Assembly (NCBI GenBank): GCA_964608765.1
Contig: CAZSPD010000001.1
Span: forward strand, 70,912-134,911
Direction: 5' to 3'
Length of the DNA: 64,000 nucleotides
Source of the DNA: Candidatus Woesearchaeota archaeon
GTDB lineage: Archaea > Nanobdellota > Nanobdellia > Pacearchaeales > GW2011-AR1
The notes under the pieces are model-generated. The model made no database searches and was not told the origin of the DNA. It saw only the letters and a list, made by a program, of their open reading frames with translations. The position numbers and the translations under genes are program-made. The stretch's first letter is position 1, and every line of letters begins with the position of its first letter. Of this stretch, positions 41,117-51,246 are shown in pieces.

Positions 41117-43417
41117 TTAGTCCTCAGGATATACACAACACACTCTGTTTGCAGGGCAAACAGCTCCTGTATTTTCTTCTCCTCCTGTGCATGGGTTAGG
41201 ATTATTTATTGTACTAACGCACATTCCTCCGTAGGAAGTAAAGCAATCACTATTACCTGCAATACCATTTTCTGATTCTGATATTGGAAGTGTTGTCTCA
41301 TATCTTTCTAAATCTCCTGTAAGATATTTATCTCCTTTGTAGATAATTTGTTCTACAGTTACATTCTTTTTAACTTCTCCACTTTGTTTTAATTTTTGGA
41401 AAATAGATGTTATTAATTCTGACTCAGGATTACCTTGCTTCCCATTAACTGCAGTTTTATATCCACAATCTCCTAATGATTTAGCTCTTTCAGTTATACT
41501 CATAATAAATTCTTGATTAGTTAAATAAATAGGATAATCTCTTTCTTTTCTTTCATCTTTTTCTTCACTTCCAAAGACAGGAGTACAATCATAAGCCTGT
41601 CCTGTAACTCTTCCTGTTGCAAGTTTATTAGGTTTTCCATCTTTAGTACAATACTGTCCTCTTCTTAAAGAAAGTGTATAACTACTTACCACATTTGGAA
41701 GTTTAAATTCAGATTCATCATAAAACTCAGTTAAAAGACTGTATAGGTTAGGACAATTCCGTGTTCCAAGATTTCCTCCTCCATTACTACACACAACATC
41801 TTCTGGATATATTTTTGTTCCATTAAATGGAAACTCTTTACCATATCCAGGAATAGCATAACATCCACTAACACATCTTGCTGCAAGTTCACCATCAGTC
41901 CACTCAGTCATACTTTTCCTACTTTTATACACAGGAGTTTCATATAGTGCACTTTCAATAACTCCTCCCATTGCACATATTCCAAACCCTTTACTTGAAG
42001 TACCATTCCAAAAATCAAATCCAGGTGGAATTAGTGGAACACACGAACCTTGCATTTCTTTTCTATATTCTTCAGGAACAGTTTCACCATCCCATCTATA
42101 TCCTGGAATCCATTTACATAAAGAAAGAAGATTTTCACATTGTGTTTTAGTTTCAGCAGAAGTACATCCCATCCAAGGATTAAAAACACACGAAGCCTGA
42201 CTTCTTTTTGAATAATCATCTATGCCTTGAATGCAAACAGCATTCCTATAGTCTGCACACTCTTCAACTATTACTTCTCCAGAAGAACAATACATCTTAT
42301 AATATCTGCTTCCAGGAAGATTATATTTAGACACATTTTTTAATGCGTTTCTGTCTGAGGTAAATAATTCCCCTGTTGTTAAGTTTTGATTAATTAAAAG
42401 AGTCCCAGGACTTTCAGCACACCAACTCTCACCATGTTGATATGTTTTTCCATTATATTTACAGCTTAAATCTCCACAAACAAGCCCATTATCATTATTT
42501 GAAGGTTTTAAATTAAACCCTGCTTCCCTATACCCTCTACAAACAGTATTAAGTGTAGAATCACAATTCCCACACGTTGCACTTCCAGAAACACCTACCT
42601 TACAGAGGTTTTCATCATATCCTGTTAAAAAGTGTGTCCAATAGTTAGCATTATTGTATTTACTTGAGTCATATATATTTGCTAAGTTCCCACACGAATC
42701 AAGATAATACACTTTACCTTCATGACAAATTGTGTTTTTAGTTGGAGCACAATCTGAAAGCCCAACCCCATTTATACTCGCAGTACATAATAATCCTTTG
42801 TGAAATCTTATCTCTATTTTATCATATGACTGAGAATTCTTTAAGTGCCCTGAAAGTTCATCTATTCTAGAATTAGTACACCCTGTATTTGTTTTCATAA
42901 CACACGCTACTTCTGTTTCTGTACTTATTACACACGCTCCCACACCTTCATTTAAAGCTATTGAATTAAGTTCACACATTTCTCTTGTTGTAATTTCTCT
43001 TTTTATTTCACCTTGAATCCCAAAATCACTAAACATATTTTTACACTCTTTTTCATTAATAAAATACGCCTCTAATCCAATAACACAACATATTTCTTGA
43101 CAAGCTGGAACTTTTTCTATTGAATTTTGACTCCAGCTTCCCCCAGATTCTAAACACAGTGTTTTAGGAGTGTATTCACTACACTGTCCTGTATTTAGAT
43201 TAACACATGTTCCAGTACATTCAGGAACAGAGCTACATGCATCTTTATACCAGCTTTTGTATTTTGCATCACAAGCATTGATATTATCTGCAGCTTGACA
43301 CCACATTCCACCATCTTTTAATTTTTCACAACATATTGCAGAAATATTTACAGCTCCGAGTATTAATAGTATAAAAGTAAAAATAATCAAACTTGTATTT
43401 TTTCTCATTTTAAACAT
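41117..43417 (-). CDS. secreted cysteine-rich protein (766 aa, about 50 Cys); operon gene 2
   Basis: Signal peptide MFKMRKNTSLIIFTFILLILGAVNISA. Cys are spread over the whole length. C-terminal module SDCFTSYGGMCVSTINNPNPCTGGEENTGAVCPANRVCCVYPED. Confidence 0.55.
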   Translation of the reverse strand: MFKMRKNTSLIIFTFILLILGAVNISAICCEKLKDGGMWCQAADNINACDAKYKSWYKDACSSVPECTGTCVNLNTGQCSEYTPKTLCLESGGSWSQNSIEKVPACQEICCVIGLEAYFINEKECKNMFSDFGIQGEIKREITTREMCELNSIALNEGVGACVISTETEVACVMKTNTGCTNSRIDELSGHLKNSQSYDKIEIRFHKGLLCTASINGVGLSDCAPTKNTICHEGKVYYLDSCGNLANIYDSSKYNNANYWTHFLTGYDENLCKVGVSGSATCGNCDSTLNTVCRGYREAGFNLKPSNNDNGLVCGDLSCKYNGKTYQHGESWCAESPGTLLINQNLTTGELFTSDRNALKNVSKYNLPGSRYYKMYCSSGEVIVEECADYRNAVCIQGIDDYSKRSQASCVFNPWMGCTSAETKTQCENLLSLCKWIPGYRWDGETVPEEYRKEMQGSCVPLIPPGFDFWNGTSSKGFGICAMGGVIESALYETPVYKSRKSMTEWTDGELAARCVSGCYAIPGYGKEFPFNGTKIYPEDVVCSNGGGNLGTRNCPNLYSLLTEFYDESEFKLPNVVSSYTLSLRRGQYCTKDGKPNKLATGRVTGQAYDCTPVFGSEEKDERKERDYPIYLTNQEFIMSITERAKSLGDCGYKTAVNGKQGNPESELITSIFQKLKQSGEVKKNVTVEQIIYKGDKYLTGDLERYETTLPISESENGIAGNSDCFTSYGGMCVSTINNPNPCTGGEENTGAVCPANRVCCVYPED

Positions 43418-44228
43418 AGGGAAGACTTCTTACTGCAAATCTAAAATCCTCCATGGTATTTAAGTCAGTTACAACATATATTTTTGAATCATCTCCTTTT
43501 CTATGCTTTTCAACTCTCATATAAGGATTATCATACATATATGCTTCAGGCATAGCATCTCCAATATTCATTTCCCAAATTAAAATATTCTTTGATATTT
43601 CAAGCATTTCATGTAAACTACTGCTTATCTCAATATTAAAGTTTCTGTATGTTTCAGATTCGTCTCCTTTTTTAAGTGCAAGTGTACTATTAAAATCAAC
43701 TAATATTGTCCTTGGAAGTATTTTAACATAGTTCTTTCCTCTATTCAAATTTACATCATATCCTTTATCTTTATAGCTTTTTTCTAAGCTTACAAAACAA
43801 TTATCAACAGTTTCTTGTATAGAATTTAATATTTCAGATTCAATATGTTCAGTTAAAAATGGTTCTTGATTAATGCAGGGTAATGTTAAGTATTCATCAG
43901 TGTAGCACAAATATCTGACATATTTAGCATCTTCTTTATCACTCCTTTTATAAAGATACCCTGTTCTTTCATCTGTAATATAATTTCCTCCTTGGGATTT
44001 TATAATGAGTGTATTTTCTTCAAATTCTTTCTCAACACAAGTTCGGATATATCCTATAGGATTTTTAGTGTCTTTTCCTCCAGATGGAAACAGTTTTGGA
44101 TAATATAAAATAATTAAAGCAATGATTGCAACAACAAGAAGTGCTATAATAATAAATATAGTAACTTGTCCTCTAAAATTTTTTGGAAGAATTTCTATCT
44201 TTCCTCCTTTCTCCTCTTTTACATTCAT
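43410..44228 (-). CDS. type IV pilin-like protein (class III signal peptide), 272 aa; operon gene 1
   Basis: ...LPKNFRGQVTIFIIIALLVVAIIALIILYYP: R-G-Q followed by a hydrophobic helix. Has an 8-nt overlap with the next gene. Confidence 0.55.
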   Translation of the reverse strand: MNVKEEKGGKIEILPKNFRGQVTIFIIIALLVVAIIALIILYYPKLFPSGGKDTKNPIGYIRTCVEKEFEENTLIIKSQGGNYITDERTGYLYKRSDKEDAKYVRYLCYTDEYLTLPCINQEPFLTEHIESEILNSIQETVDNCFVSLEKSYKDKGYDVNLNRGKNYVKILPRTILVDFNSTLALKKGDESETYRNFNIEISSSLHEMLEISKNILIWEMNIGDAMPEAYMYDNPYMRVEKHRKGDDSKIYVVTDLNTMEDFRFAVRSLPYV

Positions 44229-45110: not shown

Positions 45111-46727
45111 ATGGAATTTAAAGAAATTTCCTTTAAAGAGAGGAGAATAAGAAAAATTACTAATCTCTATTATTCAAATCCTGAAATACAAAAGGCAATT
45201 TTTGATTTCTCAAAAAATAGAGAAATTTGTCCAAGATATTTTGAAGGATTTGGAAAAAGACCAGATTCTTTTGAATACTCTGGAGATGTGTTTGAGCTTG
45301 TTAAAAGAGGAGCAACTTCTTTTAATTGTTCAGAAGAACTTTGGTCAGATCCTCTTAAAATTGAAACAGGAATGACAGAAAGGCAATTGAATGAATTAAG
45401 AATAGGATGGGACTTACTAATTGACATAGACTGTAAATATATTGATTTTAGTAAAAAAGCAGCACAGGCAATAATCAAAGTGTTTAAACAACACAAGATT
45501 AAAAATTATGGAATAAAATTTTCAGGCAATAAAGGATTTCACATAATTCTTCCATTCAAAGCCTTTCCAAAAGAAATAGCAGGAGAAAAAACAAAAGACT
45601 TATTTCCAGAATTACCTAGAAAAATCCTTTCTTACGTAAGATTCAAAGCAGAAGAAGAGATGAATAATTTAATTTCTGAAGATGAATTAGCTTCATTTAA
45701 GGATACAGAAATAAAAAAAGGAATAAAGTGTAATAATTGTAGGGAACTTGCTCAAGAATATGAATTAGTTGAGTATTTTTGTCCTAAGTGTTTTAGAAAA
45801 GAAATAAAAAAAGTTTTTTCAGAAAAAAAGAAGGACCTTAAATGTCCTGATTGTAGAACTCTCTTTAAAATAAATAAAATAGAAAAAATATATGAGTGTA
45901 AAAAATGCAATATTTCTTCAAGAGATAAACCAGATAATTTTTCTCGCCATGTTGAAATAGATTTATTTGAATTAATGGGTTTAGATTTAATACTTATTTC
46001 TCCAAGACATTTATTTAGAATGCCTTACTCTCTTCACGAAAGTAGCGGATTAGCAAGCATAGTGCTTAGTGAAAAAGAACTAGAAAATTTTGATTTAAAA
46101 GATGCTAATCCATTAAATGTTCAAATAAAAAACTTTATGCCAGATTCTAAAGATAATGAAGCAGGATATTTAGTTAGAGAAGCTTTAGACTGGGTAAAAC
46201 AAAATCAGATTTATGCAGGGGAATCAAAAGAGATTTTAAGAGGAAAATATGCAGATTTCAAACCAATAAAAATTGATAATATTTTAGATGAGCAATTTCC
46301 ACCATGTATTAAAAATATTCTTAAGGGAATGGCAGATGGAAAAAAACGATCCTTATTTGTACTCATTAATTTCTTTCGTTCAGTTGGAATGGAGAAAGAG
46401 GAACTTGAAAAAAGAATTTACGAATGGAATAAAAAGAATAACCCTCCTTTAAGAGAAGGATATGTTTACTCTCAACTTTCATGGGCATATAAAAGAAAAC
46501 CAATACTACCTCCAAATTGCAGAGAATTTTATCAAGGGATTGGGGTTTGTGAACCAGATGAGCTTTGCAACCACATCAAAAATCCTGTAAATTATTTAAT
46601 AAGAAAAAATTATCTTTCAACAAATAAATCTGAAAGAAAATTAAAAGATAAATCTGCAAAAAAGTCTCCTAGCACAACTAGAAATTTACAAAATAAAAAT
46701 AAAATTAAAAACCCTAAATCAAACTAA
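45111..46727 (+). CDS. priS: fused DNA primase: PriS catalytic domain + zinc-ribbon insert + PriL-CTD-like Fe-S domain
   Basis: PriS motifs DLLIDIDC and FSGNKGFHI. Insert has 4 CxxC pairs. The C-terminal FPPCIKNILKG...RSLFVLINFF...NCREFYQGIGVCEPDELC resembles the PriL C-terminal 4Fe-4S domain (4 Cys). Confidence 0.75.
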   Translation: MEFKEISFKERRIRKITNLYYSNPEIQKAIFDFSKNREICPRYFEGFGKRPDSFEYSGDVFELVKRGATSFNCSEELWSDPLKIETGMTERQLNELRIGWDLLIDIDCKYIDFSKKAAQAIIKVFKQHKIKNYGIKFSGNKGFHIILPFKAFPKEIAGEKTKDLFPELPRKILSYVRFKAEEEMNNLISEDELASFKDTEIKKGIKCNNCRELAQEYELVEYFCPKCFRKEIKKVFSEKKKDLKCPDCRTLFKINKIEKIYECKKCNISSRDKPDNFSRHVEIDLFELMGLDLILISPRHLFRMPYSLHESSGLASIVLSEKELENFDLKDANPLNVQIKNFMPDSKDNEAGYLVREALDWVKQNQIYAGESKEILRGKYADFKPIKIDNILDEQFPPCIKNILKGMADGKKRSLFVLINFFRSVGMEKEELEKRIYEWNKKNNPPLREGYVYSQLSWAYKRKPILPPNCREFYQGIGVCEPDELCNHIKNPVNYLIRKNYLSTNKSERKLKDKSAKKSPSTTRNLQNKNKIKNPKSN

Positions 46728-46786: not shown

Positions 46787-49700
46787 ATGAAAAGAGAAGT
46801 GGTTTTTGTATTATTATTTATCTCAATATTACCTTTTTTAAATTTTACACTAGCAGCAGAAGAAGATAAAGTTGAGTTAGGTTACTCTTGCTTAGAAAAG
46901 TCAATAAATCAAACAGGATGTTCTTCACTTAATTTTGAAGGAAAAGTTTTTGCTTACCTCGCATCAGGGCTATGTGGAAAAGAATTATCTGAAGATAATC
47001 AATCTAATCAGTGTTGGCCAAAAGCAGGATGTAAACTAAAATCAACAGCTCAAGCAATTTTAGCTCTAAACAAAAAAACAGACATGGAATTAGCAGAAAA
47101 ATGGCTTTTAAAACAAACAGCTGTTCCTTCTGGAATTGACTGGTTCTTAGAAATAGAAGTCCCAAGTGGTGAAACAACTTGTCAAATTTTGTATCCTGGC
47201 TCACCACCAGCAAAAATAACTATTAGGGAAAATAAAACTCTCTCTTCTGGAGCAGGAAGCCAATTAAAACTTGCTCAAGGAGGATACTGGTTAAGAATAG
47301 ATCCTTCATTGTACAATAAAGAAATCTATATTTCATGTGAAAGACAATTCATCACAACACTATTATTTACAAAATCTAATTCTCAGACTATACATGTTTC
47401 AGAAACTGTTAGTGGAGCAGGAGCAGGAGGAAATGTTAGTGAAAAAGTAACTTCACTTTGCTTTGCTCAAAATGGAGTGTGTAATTATGAAGGAAGTTTG
47501 TGGGCAGCACTTGTTTTAACATCTAGAGGTTATCATGAAGAAGTGCAAAACTTTTTACCTTACCTCATTACAATGAAAGATGAGCCTTCTAATTCAATCT
47601 ATATTCCTGAATCATTTTTATATTATCTAACAAATAAATTTAGAGTAGAATTACTTTTGAAACAAAAATACTCTTCATATTGGGAAGAATCTGGAAATAG
47701 ATATTATGATACTGCACTTGCATTACTTCCTTTAGCTTCTGGAAAATATGATGAAAACTCTAATGAAAAATCTAATGCTAAAGAATGGCTTTTATCAGTT
47801 CAACAAAAAAATGGATGTTGGAACAATGGGAACATAAGAGACACTGCATTTTTACTTTATTCTATTTGGCCTAAAAATCCTTTTTCACCCGTAGGAGAGT
47901 GTGAATATAATTGGGATTGTCCAAGAGTAGATTGTAAATATGCTTGGTGTGAAAAAGGGGTATGTAAATATGAATATGATGGAAGTTGCATTGGAGATGT
48001 TATTTGTAAGTCAGATTCAGATTGTCCTGCTCCAGAATATTCTGAAAACTTTTGTGATGGAAACACAGTTTACAGAGAAACATATACTTTTTCTTGTGAA
48101 ACCTCAAAAGGAACTTGTAAAGTAAGAGACACTAAAAGAGATGTAATTAAATCATGTTCAAAATCAGAAAAGTGCGAAGATGGTAAGTGTATTCAAGATT
48201 CTTGTAGCTATCTTAATCCTTGTCCAAAAGGATATGATTGTGTAAGTGGTTCGTGTATTGAAATAGGGGGAGAGTGTAAGGTTGATAGTGAGTGTGAAGT
48301 TTATAATTATGAAACAGACCCTTTTTGTTCTGATAAATCAACTGTTTCTAAATCTTCCTACACCTACTTTTGTAATACTAAAAAATTAGTATGTGAGCCA
48401 AATAAAGATAAGACAATTACACTTGAGAAATGTTCTAGTTCTCAAAAATGCGATGAATATTCAGCAATGTGTGTAGATAAGGACGAACCTGAATGTGACG
48501 GATTTCTTAAGTGGTGTCCTTCAGGGTATAAATGTTCTAATGGTAAGTGTATTCTTAAAGGAGGCGAAGGAGAAGAAACCCCTAAAGGGCAATGCGAAAT
48601 AGCAGGGGATTGCGACTACAAAGAATGTAAAGTTGCAGAGTGTATAAAAGGAACTTGTTTATGGGAGTATGTTGAATGTAAGAATAATGATTTCTGTTGC
48701 TCTCCTGGATGTAATTATTCTAATGATAATGATTGTGGAGATCCCCCTGAATGCACCTCTGATTCAGATTGTGTAGGTTATGATTATGATTCATCACCTT
48801 TTTGTGATGGAAAACCTTCAAACTATAAAATCATAACAAATCTTTATAATTATACTTGTGTGGATTTCAAGTGTAGCCCGAATATAAGCAGTATTTTAGT
48901 TGAAGATTGTTTACCTTCTCAAGATTGTTACAGTGGAACTTGTTATAACCAATCTTCTACTTGCGAGTGTGTAGATAATTATGGTTGTAGTGTAGGGTAT
49001 AAATGTGTTGATTGTGAGTGTGTAAAGTTAGGAAAAAATGAGTGTATAGATTCGTGGAATTGCGGTTATGATGAAGATTGTGTAAATGAGAAGTGTGTTC
49101 CACTTAAGTGTACTAAAGATGGTGATTGTTATTTTGGATTATGTGTAGATGGAGAGTGTGCTCCATCAAAAGACTGTAAAAGTAAAGGATATTATTGTAA
49201 ATCTAAGTCAAGCTGTGATGCAGGTAATGGAGACATAATGCAAGATTATTCTTGTAAAGAAGATTTGCTTGTTTGTTGTAGTAAAGATTCTGAGCTTTTA
49301 ACTTGCGAGAAGGAGGGAGGAATAATCTGCGCATATAATGAAGTGTGTGTAAATGGAGCTTCTCCTATGACTTCAGATATCTTTTGGGGAGAAGTGTGTT
49401 GTGTTGGAGGAAAATGCTCTTCAGAAAAAGGTGGCTCTGATTTACCAGACAATTCAATCTATTGTGTAGATGAAGGAGGAAGATGTGCTAGTGAAGGTTA
49501 TTGTGAAAGTAATGAAGTTGAAAAACCTTATTTATGTGATTCTTCTTATCAATCTTGCTGTATTAAGTCAAGCTCAGGGGGATCAAGTTCTGGAAAATCT
49601 AAGAAAGGGGGAGCTTGGGTGATAATCATTATACTTTTAATTTTAATTATACTTGCAGTTTTAGGAATAGTATTTAGAGATAAAGTAAGAACTGAGTGGA

Positions 49701-50089
49701 TGAAAGTTAAAAACAAGCTAAGTGGAAAAAAATCTAAAAAAACACCTCAAGGTCCTCCAGGATTACCTTCATCAATGCAGCCAAATTCTCAAGGAAGAAT
49801 TTCTCCAAGAAGAATTTTACCTCCAGGGCAATCTGCTACAGGGCAGGCACCTCCAGGTTCTAAATTCCCTATGAGAACAGTAGGTCCTCCAATGTCAATG
49901 CCTCCTTCACAACCACCAAGACAAACTCCACTAGCAAGAACTTCGCCAACCACACCTCCTCAAACTACTCCAACTCAACAACCTCAAACAGGAACACAAT
50001 CAAAAACTCCTGAGAAGAAAAAAGATGAAAAATCTAAAGAAGATTTAGATGATGTCTTAAAAAGATTAAGGGAAATGGGTGACAAATAA
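46787..50089 (+). CDS. giant modular Cys-rich surface protein: signal peptide, alpha/alpha-toroid-like (prenyltransferase/terpene-cyclase-repeat-like) domain, tandem Cys-rich modules, TM, Pro/Gln/Thr-rich cytoplasmic tail
   Basis: 1100 aa. N-terminal signal peptide. Repeated helix motifs STAQAILAL, GSLWAALVL, YDTALALLPL, IRDTAFLLYSIW. Repeated C-x-SDSDC...FCDG...Y-x-C modules. TM WVIIIILLILIILAVLGIVF. Tail PQGPPGLPSS...PPQTTPTQQPQTG. Confidence 0.6.
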   Translation: MKREVVFVLLFISILPFLNFTLAAEEDKVELGYSCLEKSINQTGCSSLNFEGKVFAYLASGLCGKELSEDNQSNQCWPKAGCKLKSTAQAILALNKKTDMELAEKWLLKQTAVPSGIDWFLEIEVPSGETTCQILYPGSPPAKITIRENKTLSSGAGSQLKLAQGGYWLRIDPSLYNKEIYISCERQFITTLLFTKSNSQTIHVSETVSGAGAGGNVSEKVTSLCFAQNGVCNYEGSLWAALVLTSRGYHEEVQNFLPYLITMKDEPSNSIYIPESFLYYLTNKFRVELLLKQKYSSYWEESGNRYYDTALALLPLASGKYDENSNEKSNAKEWLLSVQQKNGCWNNGNIRDTAFLLYSIWPKNPFSPVGECEYNWDCPRVDCKYAWCEKGVCKYEYDGSCIGDVICKSDSDCPAPEYSENFCDGNTVYRETYTFSCETSKGTCKVRDTKRDVIKSCSKSEKCEDGKCIQDSCSYLNPCPKGYDCVSGSCIEIGGECKVDSECEVYNYETDPFCSDKSTVSKSSYTYFCNTKKLVCEPNKDKTITLEKCSSSQKCDEYSAMCVDKDEPECDGFLKWCPSGYKCSNGKCILKGGEGEETPKGQCEIAGDCDYKECKVAECIKGTCLWEYVECKNNDFCCSPGCNYSNDNDCGDPPECTSDSDCVGYDYDSSPFCDGKPSNYKIITNLYNYTCVDFKCSPNISSILVEDCLPSQDCYSGTCYNQSSTCECVDNYGCSVGYKCVDCECVKLGKNECIDSWNCGYDEDCVNEKCVPLKCTKDGDCYFGLCVDGECAPSKDCKSKGYYCKSKSSCDAGNGDIMQDYSCKEDLLVCCSKDSELLTCEKEGGIICAYNEVCVNGASPMTSDIFWGEVCCVGGKCSSEKGGSDLPDNSIYCVDEGGRCASEGYCESNEVEKPYLCDSSYQSCCIKSSSGGSSSGKSKKGGAWVIIIILLILIILAVLGIVFRDKVRTEWMKVKNKLSGKKSKKTPQGPPGLPSSMQPNSQGRISPRRILPPGQSATGQAPPGSKFPMRTVGPPMSMPPSQPPRQTPLARTSPTTPPQTTPTQQPQTGTQSKTPEKKKDEKSKEDLDDVLKRLREMGDK

Positions 50090-50102: not shown

Positions 50103-50672
50103 TTAATTTTTTTTACCTTTACTTCCAACACTTTCCTTTTTTTTACCTTTATTCTTATTACTCTCACTTCCTATGCTTTTACTTTCATTACTCCCACTCT
50201 CTTTATTTTCAATTTCTTTAACTTTCTTTAAAGCCTCTTTATATTTTTCTTGCATCTTTGCATTTTCCAGTCCAATCATTCTTGCAAGTTCTTCATATCC
50301 ATGAAGTCTTCTAGTTAATTCACTAAGGATTTCAGTCCACCCATTATTAGTTAGAACAATGTTTTCTGGACTTATAACTTCTACATTAGCAGGCATATAT
50401 TTGAACACAACCATCGCCAAATATAAAATACTTTCAACTTCGAGTTCAACTTCTGCAAATGTGCTATAAAACTCTTTGTTCTCCTCTATTTTAATTGGCT
50501 CATTTACTTTTTTATTTATAACCTTAACACCTTTTTCTTCATTTATCTTTTTTATTATTTCTTCGAGAGTCTCAACAAGATGCTCAGGAGGTCTTCCTAA
50601 TATTTCGAGTATTATTGTAGAGTATATTACTCTCTTTTTTTCATCTTCTCTATCTAAATTCACTTTTTTCAT
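50103..50672 (-). CDS. hypothetical cytoplasmic protein
   Basis: 189-aa ORF. No motif recognised. Lys/Ser-rich tail. Confidence 0.45.
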   Translation of the reverse strand: MKKVNLDREDEKKRVIYSTIILEILGRPPEHLVETLEEIIKKINEEKGVKVINKKVNEPIKIEENKEFYSTFAEVELEVESILYLAMVVFKYMPANVEVISPENIVLTNNGWTEILSELTRRLHGYEELARMIGLENAKMQEKYKEALKKVKEIENKESGSNESKSIGSESNKNKGKKKESVGSKGKKN

Positions 50673-51246
50673 TTTCTTTTTTCTTTAACAAAAATAAAAA
50701 ACCAACTAAAGCACAAAGCAAAACTAGCCCATAAATTGATATTTTACTCTTATCTGATTTTTCAGTGTTGTTTTTGCTTTTTATATCTTTTGAATTTATT
50801 TCATTTAACATAATTACTTCTGACTCTTCTTCAGCTTCATTAACTTCATTCTCTTCCTCATCATATGGAACAAATTTATAGTAAATTGTTTTTCTTTCTT
50901 TGGACTCATTTTCACTCTCTTCATCATCTTCCACTAATTCCTTCTCTTCCTTATTATCTTCACTCTCTTTTTTCTTTTCACCACTAACACAAGCTAGTCC
51001 TTGTTCTTTAATTTTTTCAAGAGTTGTCTTACCTATTCCCACTACGTTTATCAAATCATCTACACTATTAAATGGGCGAGAATCAATTATTGATTGAGCT
51101 TTTACAGCACCTATTCCAGAGAGTTTATCCAATTCTTCTAAAGAAGCTGTGTTAATATTAATTTGATTTTTTTCACATAGTGAAGAAACATTTACTAAAT
51201 TTAGAACTATGAAAAATGCTGCGAAAAAAAGCAAGATATTTTTCAT
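50650..51246 (-). CDS. ComEA-like extracellular helix-hairpin-helix DNA-binding protein with C-terminal TM anchor
   Basis: Signal peptide MKNILLFFAAFFIVLNLVNVSS. ININTASLEELDKLSGIGAVKAQSIIDSRPFNSVDDLINVVGIGKTTLEKIKEQG is the ComEA (HhH)2 signature. Followed by an acidic linker and a C-terminal TM. Confidence 0.75.
   Translation of the reverse strand: MKNILLFFAAFFIVLNLVNVSSLCEKNQININTASLEELDKLSGIGAVKAQSIIDSRPFNSVDDLINVVGIGKTTLEKIKEQGLACVSGEKKKESEDNKEEKELVEDDEESENESKERKTIYYKFVPYDEEENEVNEAEEESEVIMLNEINSKDIKSKNNTEKSDKSKISIYGLVLLCALVGFLFLLKKKENEKSEFR

Follow-up and report, generated by a model that had tools for sequence, protein, structure and literature searches.

The gene, its layout and its family

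The 64,000-nucleotide stretch of Candidatus Woesearchaeota archaeon DNA analyzed here (contig CAZSPD010000001.1; the window) carries, at 46787..50089 (+), an open reading frame (ORF) with an ATG start that encodes a protein of 1100 amino acids. An identical protein is already present in public data on a 215-kb contig, where it has no protein name. Hydropathy revealed exactly two hydrophobic segments, residues 3 to 26 and about residues 944 to 963, and the protein has a type-I topology with its cysteine-rich part outside the cell. The order of domains is a signal peptide, a head of ~345 residues, a 560-residue cysteine-rich region, one transmembrane helix and a proline-rich tail. There are 90 cysteines in all, 80 of which fall within residues 366 to 925 (14.3%) and none in the transmembrane helix or tail. 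A preliminary description made from the sequence had proposed a large adhesin or receptor, which is reasonable as a proposal; with a probability of roughly 0.55, we consider the protein to be a type-I membrane surface receptor or adhesin that is specific to one clade of DPANN archaea (Woese-, Pace- and Nanoarchaeota). Its features, in nucleotide positions of the window, are as follows.

46787..50089 (+): complete ORF, 1100 residues plus stop, type-I membrane protein (ORF reading; identical protein in public collections)
46787..46858 (+): signal peptide, residues 1 to 24, ...LNFTLA followed by AEED, with probable cleavage after residue 24 (hydrophobic residues 3 to 26; like the N-terminus of inspected family members)
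46859..47122 (+): N-terminal helical part of the head, residues 25 to 112 (AlphaFold2 [AF2] helices 26-43, 50-60, 64-69, 84-94 and 101-109)
47123..47476 (+): all-beta, sandwich-like insertion, residues 113 to 230 (ten strands in residues 117 to 228, 112 residues; predicted local distance difference test [pLDDT] of the block mostly 96 to 98)
47477..47890 (+): C-terminal helical part of the head, residues 231 to 368, 8 to 9 helices (AF2, Foldseek, sub-threshold Pfam)
47786..47821 (+): QW-type motif WLLSVQQKNGCW, residues 334 to 345 (pattern match; aligns to 8pak_A repeats)
47891..49174 (+): variable, putatively disulfide-rich stalk insert, residues 369 to 796, 62 cysteines (module map, family comparison)
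47900..47989 (+): A1 module, residues 372 to 401, C-x5-C-x4-C-x4-C-x4-C-x7-C (equivalents in family members P0001, P0002, P0123 and P0139)
48005..48205 (+): B1 module, residues 407 to 473 (repeat alignment; hidden Markov model [HMM] i-E 4e-17)
48203..48256 (+): C1 four-cysteine unit, residues 473 to 490, ...CPKGYDCVSGSC (module map)
48275..48472 (+): B2 module, residues 497 to 562 (repeat alignment; HMM i-E 3e-17)
48494..48550 (+): C2 four-cysteine unit, residues 570 to 588, ...CPSGYKCSNGKC (module map)
48593..48736 (+): A2 module with a CCSPGC...DNDC extension, residues 603 to 650 (module map)
48752..48943 (+): B3 module, residues 656 to 719 (repeat alignment; HMM i-E 3e-15)
48962..49159 (+): C3 to C5 short cysteine units, residues 726 to 791 (module map)
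49175..49279 (+): D1 six-cysteine module, residues 797 to 831, C-x6-C-x5-C-x12-C-x6-CC (cysteine columns kept in 122 of 128 members)
49304..49417 (+): D2 six-cysteine module, residues 840 to 877, C-x7-C-x5-C-x16-CC-x4-C (family-invariant, module map)
49463..49561 (+): D3 six-cysteine module, residues 893 to 925, C-x6-C-x5-C-x10-C-x6-CC (family-invariant, module map)
49616..49675 (+): transmembrane helix, residues 944 to 963, WVIIIILLILIILAVLGIVF, then RDKVR (hydropathy)
49676..50038 (+): low-complexity tail rich in Pro, Lys, Thr, Ser and Gln, residues 964 to 1084 (composition)
50039..50086 (+): invariant C-terminal peptide EDLDDVLKRLREMGDK (family consensus E[LMI]D[DE]VLKKLK[ED]MGK-COOH)

A first search with the head returned at least 523 clusters at 90% identity, and the family comprised 903 representatives at 50% identity (E <= 1e-3), 490 of which had E <= 1e-30. 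Within 185,579 species-representative genomes, 397 loci were located; among the 80 listed, nearly all were labelled Woesearchaeota, Pacearchaeota, Nanoarchaeota or 'archaeon', with one copy per species genome. The expectation that homologs would be found in DPANN genomes was thereby borne out, the loci being essentially all from Woese-, Pace- and Nanoarchaeota. Two contigs of less than 3 kb (L023 and L054) are filed as 'Patescibacteria group bacterium' and encode heads ~50% identical to the archaeal family; these are probably mis-binned archaeal fragments and not transfers to bacteria of the candidate phyla radiation.

The window protein matched 120 listed members with E values of 1e-136 to 1e-89 and head identities of about 45 to 60%, and it has the hallmarks of the family, namely the head, D1 to D3, a transmembrane segment of the WIWILL...FRDKLR type, the C-terminal peptide and the shared synteny. 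The typical member is ~606 residues long, compared to 1100 here. Across the family the head is about 50% identical, with many invariant tryptophans, cysteines and polar residues. The members shown from the first search all carried the source name 'hypothetical protein' or a blank, Pfam found nothing in most members, and the family has neither name nor annotation in the databases consulted; no prior description of it was found in the searchable literature.

The gene also occupies a conserved position. In 63 of 64 loci a gene for a fused PriS-PriL primase immediately precedes it in the same orientation, with PCNA beyond the primase in 56 of 64. The window primase (45111-46727, +) has PriS (PF01896) and PriL (PF04104) domains fused in a single polypeptide, and the gap between it and the family gene is 59 nt; in L002 and L003 the gap is 11 nt. 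Two genes follow downstream on the other strand, an MJ0538-like gene in 62 of 66 loci and a ComEA-like HHH gene in 47 of 66. In the window, these two genes (MJ0538-like, 50103-50672, -; ComEA-like HHH_3, 50650-51246, -) overlap by 23 nt and are convergent to the 1100-residue gene, and the ComEA-like HHH_3 protein has a signal peptide and a C-terminal transmembrane helix. Since the primase/PCNA synteny has been kept, the family gene is a core, vertically inherited gene.

Predicted fold of the head

Residues 1 to 420 were modeled by AF2 using a family alignment of 119 sequences (pLDDT, 88.2; pTM, 0.84). The modeled head consists of five helices in residues 26 to 109, ten strands in residues 117 to 228 and nine helices in residues 234 to 360, the beta insertion sitting between helices 5 and 6; residues 371 to 420 were unstructured in the model. 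The helix-pair motifs from which a toroid-like head had been proposed in the preliminary description are present (STAQAILAL, residues 86 to 94; GSLWAALVL, 236 to 244; YDTALALLPL, 307 to 316; GCWNNGNIRDTAFLLYSIW, 343 to 361). The N-terminal helical part carries STAQAILAL plus a degenerate QW-like WLLKQ...W, and the C-terminal helical part contains GSLWAALVL, YDTALAL, the QW motif and ...LYSIWP, with which heads of the family end. AF2 and Foldseek point to the proposed fold class, but the putative toroid accounts for only about 230 of the ~345 residues of the head, residues 113 to 230 being a beta-sandwich that the preliminary description did not contain.

When the whole-head model was compared to the PDB with Foldseek, nothing was found at E <= 1e-3, and the matches were mostly Ig-like noise from the beta insertion. 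The sole match over the full span was the alpha6/alpha6 barrel of human intrinsic factor (2pmv_B; probability, 0.77; TMt, 0.52; E, 0.31). Because a 112-residue insertion costs a local aligner heavily, the contiguous C-terminal helical half (residues 229 to 368) was modeled alone (pLDDT, 90.9). The top 19 Foldseek matches of this half-head all belonged to the alpha/alpha-toroid superfamily, with every E value between 0.5 and 8. They included oxidosqualene cyclase (OSC; probability, 0.92), the TED of C3b/C3d (probability, 0.84 to 0.90; TMq, 0.52 to 0.60; 20 to 21% identity; for C3b, 0.90 and 0.59), squalene-hopene cyclase (SHC; 8pak_A, with a probability of 0.84 and TMq of 0.54, and 1sqc), C4b, alpha-2-macroglobulin and transcobalamin. 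At lower ranks were SHC 3sqc, farnesyltransferase-beta (rank 24 or lower; probability, <=0.23), intrinsic factor and drimenol synthase.

Sequence profiles pointed to the same region. In Pfam and NCBIfam the window protein gave sub-threshold signals only (SQHop_cyclase_C, TED_complement and squalene cyclases), at about residues 294 to 355. With the head alone, SQHop_cyclase_C scored 16.1 bits against a Pfam gathering cut-off of 26.1, and TED_complement 14.4 bits against a cut-off of 22; the full-length protein scored 12.9 and 10.6 bits, respectively. When 37 heads were scanned, the matches listed at E <= 1 were to SQHop_cyclase_C in 5 (best E, 8.2e-5), to TED_complement in 4 and to SQHop_cyclase_N in 2. 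The family profile aligned with two consecutive repeats of SHC 8pak_A among PDB sequences ('YDTALAL...WLl.vQ..dGCW'; E, 0.45). Moreover, the QW pattern [FYW][LIV]x3Qx2-5GxW was met with in 186 of 255 family proteins (186 to 232 of 255 for the QW motif overall), and YDTA in 230 of 255. Because the Foldseek lists, the sub-threshold Pfam signals, the PDB profile match and the QW motif converge, the helical part of the head is probably a toroid of the terpenoid-cyclase/prenyltransferase/TED class, in fold and also at the superfamily level.

The beta insertion itself gave only weak Ig-, FN3- and adhesin-like Foldseek matches. In the family it holds a near-invariant pair of cysteines (consensus AGxCLSL ... 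ISPxCY). Both are gone from the window protein, at residues 159 and 175 (nt ~47261-47263 and ~47309-47311), where the sequence reads AGSQLKL ... IDPSLY; their joint loss is what would be expected of a disulfide pair.

Cysteine modules, tail and downstream partner gene

Residues 369 to 925 are made up of modules in the order A1-B1-C1-B2-C2-A2-B3-C3-C4-C5-D1-D2-D3. The cysteine-unit motifs quoted in the preliminary description are found at residues 479 to 490 (CPKGYDCVSGSC), 577 to 588 (CPSGYKCSNGKC) and 734 to 745 (CSVGYKCVDCEC), as are the echoes that it had noticed in the DNA (GATTCAGATTGT at 48014 and 48761; TGTGATGGAAA at 48053 and 48803). It had also posited at least three cysteine-rich modules of ~65 residues. 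B1, B2 and B3 were aligned locally in pairs and compared with 2000 shuffles in which every cysteine was held fixed. The scores were 84 to 120 versus shuffle means of 34 to 45 (z = 6.8 to 9.2), and 0 of 2000 shuffles reached the observed value; since no cysteine-fixed shuffle attained it, the B modules are genuine repeats, beyond what cysteine composition alone would give. An HMM iterated from the three (consensus, CTSDSDCEALEYESDNYCSDDSTVYKDVYTYTCDTSVGECEEEKTEELVETCSSSEECEAGEC) picked up 26 copies among 255 family proteins, spread over 14 of them, and cysteine-fixed shuffled versions of the same proteins yielded none. No Pfam model matches the B module (~62 residues, 8 cysteines), which was found only within this family, and a word-indexed homolog search with B1-C1-B2 returned nothing, an outcome limited by the index.

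Although real, the ~65-residue modules do not define the family. The stalk insert ranges from 9 to 820 residues among members, about 90-fold, with a median of 16, and is shorter than 20 residues in 89 of 127; in the window protein it is ~430 residues, and its closest relatives are likewise long. At the same position other members carry B modules, DUF7107 arrays, MopE-type or DUF4215 repeats, multiplied D1-like units or a Cys-poor domain. Because both the content and the length of the insert differ among members at one position, the B modules are, as judged from these comparisons, an accessory, lineage-specific stalk and not part of the family core. DUF7107 (PF23416), MopE-type (PF11617) and DUF4215 (PF13948) repeats, which other members carry where the window protein has A, B and C modules, all fail to score in the window protein, but its C units (C-x5-C-x5-C-x4-C) resemble halves of the units in the arrays assigned to DUF7107 in those members. 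All 127 of 127 members have an even number of cysteines in the insert, a point in favor of complete disulfide pairing of the stalk cysteines. The G+C content is 0.356 at window positions 48001-50000, compared to about 0.28 to 0.31 elsewhere in the window; since this coincides with the Cys-, Gly- and Pro-rich part of the ORF, it is probably compositional and not a sign of foreign origin.

Nearest the membrane, D1 to D3 are invariant in the family and, like the beta insertion and the C-terminal peptide, go beyond what had been described. The family pattern of D1 is C-x6-C-x5-C-x9-12-C-x5-6-CC and that of D3 is C-x6-C-x3-5-C-x10-11-C-x5-6-CC, and the two are homologous (hhalign probability, 94%; P, 1.3e-7). 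The beta-defensin signature is C-x6-C-x4-C-x9-C-x6-CC. Compared by spacing alone, the D1/D3 pattern (C-x6-C-x3-5-C-x9-12-C-x5-6-CC) equals that of the beta-defensins, and the family profile gave a weak match to beta-defensin 106 at D3 (E, 0.33). Beta-defensins are, however, secreted peptides, whereas D1 and D3 are part of a tethered archaeal ectodomain. Elsewhere in the window, a secreted-type protein of 766 residues (41117-43417, -), with 50 cysteines (6.5%) and no Pfam domain, recurs on the far side of PCNA in 41 of 64 related loci. At the C-terminus of this protein (CFTSYGGMCVSTINNPNPCTGGEENTGAVCPANRVCC) the C..C..C..C..CC spacing is that of D1 and D3, but the D1 and D3 HMMs do not score it.

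In loci where the family gene is short, a partner gene lies directly 3' on the same strand (8769-10052 in L002, 8841-9959 in L001 and 8814-10088 in L003). Its product has a signal peptide, a beta-rich ectodomain of ~300 residues, one six-cysteine module, a transmembrane helix and a short basic tail. The D2 HMM matched 26 of 47 downstream partner ORFs and 0 shuffled controls; the D1 and D3 HMMs did not match. This suggests that D2-type modules might pair the family protein laterally with its partner. The window lacks the partner gene. Of the long-stalk loci that extend far enough downstream, only 1 of 8 has it, as opposed to 60 of 61 short-gene loci (Fisher p = 6e-8). The MJ0538-like gene starts 10 to 183 nt past the stop codon in 8 of 9 long-stalk loci; where the family gene is short, the median distance is 1632 nt. 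The long-stalk genes are mutual closest relatives (head identity to the window protein, 54 to 79%; three B modules each), so the association of partner loss with a long stalk may go back to one event in evolution. That the stalk insert arose from the lost partner gene was considered and rejected, as no similarity between them was found and the partner ectodomain is Cys-poor.

On the cytoplasmic side, the family transmembrane consensus WIWILLILIxLVxLGIIFRDKLR is followed by a K/R-rich stretch and, in the window protein, by a tail of 135 residues that is 18% proline and includes PRRILPP at residues 1007 to 1013 (nt 49805-49825; family consensus, PRRIxPP, the tails of the family being rich in Pro and Arg). 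Of the single transmembrane segment and disordered tail put forward in the preliminary description, the one helix and the low-complexity tail were recovered, and the composition of the tail suggests disorder. The protein ends in DLDDVLKRLREMGDK, the family-invariant form being ELDDVLKKLKEMGK. This peptide is at the extreme C-terminus in 113 of 119 members, with near variants in three of the remainder, and in 79 of 82 complete species-level genes; it is more conserved than nearly all other parts of the protein. It occurs in no other gene among 3814 ORF segments from the window and 83 related loci, and a sorting signal common to several proteins was on that ground rejected locally. Docking motifs are usually built in this way, as a fixed peptide at the end of a flexible linker, so a cytoplasmic partner appears likely. 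The hydrophobic spacing of the peptide (V, L and M at i, i+4 and i+7, with a basic residue between) resembles that of the ESCRT-III MIM1, and the tail also has the PRRIxPP motif. A MIM1-like ligand of the Vps4/CdvC MIT domain is nevertheless unlikely, since FtsZ-based division has been reported for DPANN archaea, and Cdv proteins only for the other three superphyla (PMC7617429, PMC8970359).

Candidate role and alternatives

Each part of the window protein belongs to or resembles a known kind, and the combination of a toroid, an inserted beta-sandwich, defensin-spaced cysteine modules, a transmembrane helix and a C-terminal peptide has no counterpart among known families in the searched libraries and literature. 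As a surface receptor or adhesin, the protein might work as follows. The head, in which the QW and YDTA repeat signatures are kept and the thioester and cyclase acid motifs are absent, would be a non-catalytic binder whose extracellular ligand is part of a host surface or a small molecule to be scavenged. The stalk would set the distance between head and membrane, to be re-tuned in different lineages by gain or loss of cysteine modules; D2 could pair the protein laterally with the D2-bearing partner in species that have one; and the C-terminal peptide, on its flexible tail, may dock onto a cytoplasmic factor. The window version would then belong to a sub-clade in which the stalk was expanded by three B modules and the partner gene was lost.

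Several points weigh against this interpretation. No match to the toroid fold is significant on its own (Foldseek E, >=0.3; Pfam, below gathering cut-offs; PDB profile E, 0.45), and the invariant E235 and D308 might serve in catalysis, as acidic residues do in (alpha/alpha)6 glycosidases. Disulfide bonding of the stalk and association through D2 are presumed from cysteine patterns and profile matches, and disorder of the tail from its composition. Moreover, no ligand, partner or phenotype has been described in the searchable literature.

A more specific version of the receptor reading, which we hold to be rather improbable as it stands, is a host-interface receptor of a new architectural class, in which the toroid and beta-sandwich would capture a hydrophobic or isoprenoid ligand of the host, or a component of its envelope, and the C-terminal peptide would link cytoplasmic machinery to whether the receptor is occupied or where it sits. 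A host-derived lipid or isoprenoid ligand fits episymbionts that are auxotrophic for lipids and cofactors. If this were true, rapid gain and loss of cysteine modules would tune the reach of the receptor to different host envelopes.

Alternatively, the protein might be an envelope scaffold, a pillar between the membrane and the S-layer or outer envelope that would also tie in, via the C-terminal peptide, a factor of the cytoskeleton or of cell division, with the length of the stalk matching the spacing of the envelope. The single copy per species genome among the 80 listed loci, the housekeeping synteny and the invariance of the membrane-proximal modules, transmembrane helix and C-terminal peptide are all consistent with such a pillar, in which the stalk would act as a length-variable spacer. 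We consider it unlikely because a strongly conserved globular head exceeds what a spacer needs and because ~90-fold variation of the stalk between related species is hard to square with a fixed gap.

Quite unlikely, in our estimation, is a tethered extracellular enzyme built on an (alpha/alpha)6-type barrel, whether like glycoside hydrolases or lyases or acting on isoprenoids. Many enzymes use toroid folds, E235 (in YEGSLW) and D308 (in YDTA) are invariant in the family with Q293 and Q339 nearly so, and the beta insertion weakly resembles the pectin-binding GUB_WAK_bind, which scored below threshold in 12 of 37 members in the Pfam scan. However, no glycosidase or lyase family was matched in Pfam or NCBIfam, the structural neighbors all belong to the SHC/OSC/TED/intrinsic factor/prenyltransferase branch and none are glycosidases, and the conserved acidic residues lie within the repeat signatures YDTA and YEGSLW, which are typical structural repeat elements. 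The terpene-cyclase motifs are absent as well. The class II acid motif DxDDTA was found in 1 of 255 family proteins, outside the head, and DxDD is not conserved; the site that resembles DxDD(TA) reads [YF]YDTA in the family, with a single Asp. The class I motif DDxxD was found in only 37 of 255 and occupies no conserved column of the head alignment, and the examples inspected were within acidic linker stretches. Membership among the terpene-cyclase enzymes was ruled out, there being no DxDD or DDxxD motifs, and the head is more plausibly a non-catalytic binding module, as far as its motifs can tell. The window head does share helical hairpin repeats, a QW motif (WLLxxQxxxGCW) and the TAQAILAL and YDTALAL inner-helix signatures with SHC/OSC and Prenyltrans proteins. 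It differs from SHC/OSC in that it lacks DxDD(TA) and DDxxD, is predicted to be a single toroid with a beta-sandwich inserted and scores below the family thresholds; SHC and OSC are cytoplasmic or monotopic, whereas the window protein is secreted, tethered by a C-terminal transmembrane helix and, presumably, disulfide bonded.

Intrinsic factor and transcobalamin are composed of a barrel plus a beta domain of ~110 residues. A receptor scavenging corrinoids or other cofactors in their manner, with the ligand held between the barrel and the ~110-residue beta domain, would account for this resemblance in composition, for intrinsic factor being the only Foldseek match to span the whole head and for the recurrence of both proteins in the half-head list. 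DPANN archaea are described as auxotrophs (PMC11329633), which also favors such a receptor. We regard it as very unlikely nonetheless, since the E values lie between 0.31 and 5.8, intrinsic factor and transcobalamin have a C-terminal beta domain where the window head has an inserted one, neither Cobalamin_bind nor DUF4430 gave a Pfam signal in the window protein or the scanned heads, so that no sequence-family signal accompanies the 2pmv_B match, and TED and SHC fit the half-head better.

Of all the alternatives, only a thioester-based covalent trap or adhesin, like alpha-2-macroglobulin or complement TED and hinted at in the preliminary description, is essentially excluded: despite the best half-head TM-scores (C3b/C3d TED) and the sub-threshold TED_complement signal in 4 of 37 members, the CGEQ-type motif (C[GA]EQ) occurs in 1 of 255 family proteins, there at residue 403 and outside the head, the sole conserved cysteine in the neighborhood of a possible site belongs to GCWxGN, where position i+3 holds no conserved Gln or Asn, and no A2M, macroglobulin (MG) or CUB domain was detected by Pfam in the window protein, whose head directly follows the signal peptide. 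The complement/A2M TED, at ~20% identity, is an extracellular binding toroid, as the window head is proposed to be, and in those proteins it is inserted into the CUB beta-sandwich; here the relationship is reversed, a beta-sandwich being inserted in the predicted toroid.

The Woese-, Pace- and Nanoarchaeota are abundant, uncultured and genome-reduced, and their attachment to hosts and feeding are little understood. A family that is near-universal in one clade, syntenic with replication genes and possessed of a conserved head on a stalk varying ~90-fold is a concrete candidate for a protein that contacts host or ligand, worth pursuing even if its eventual function proves structural. It offers handles for experiment in the C-terminal peptide, for pull-downs, and in a recombinant head, for ligand screens.

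One further gene of the window may be mentioned. A protein of 272 residues (43410-44228, -) adjoins the 766-residue protein and another of 833 residues, neither of which has a Pfam match above threshold, and its N-terminus (...KNFRGQVTIFIIIALLVVAII...) resembles the class III (prepilin-type) signal peptides of archaea. This 272-residue protein has no Pfam match and recurs in 46 of 64 related loci.

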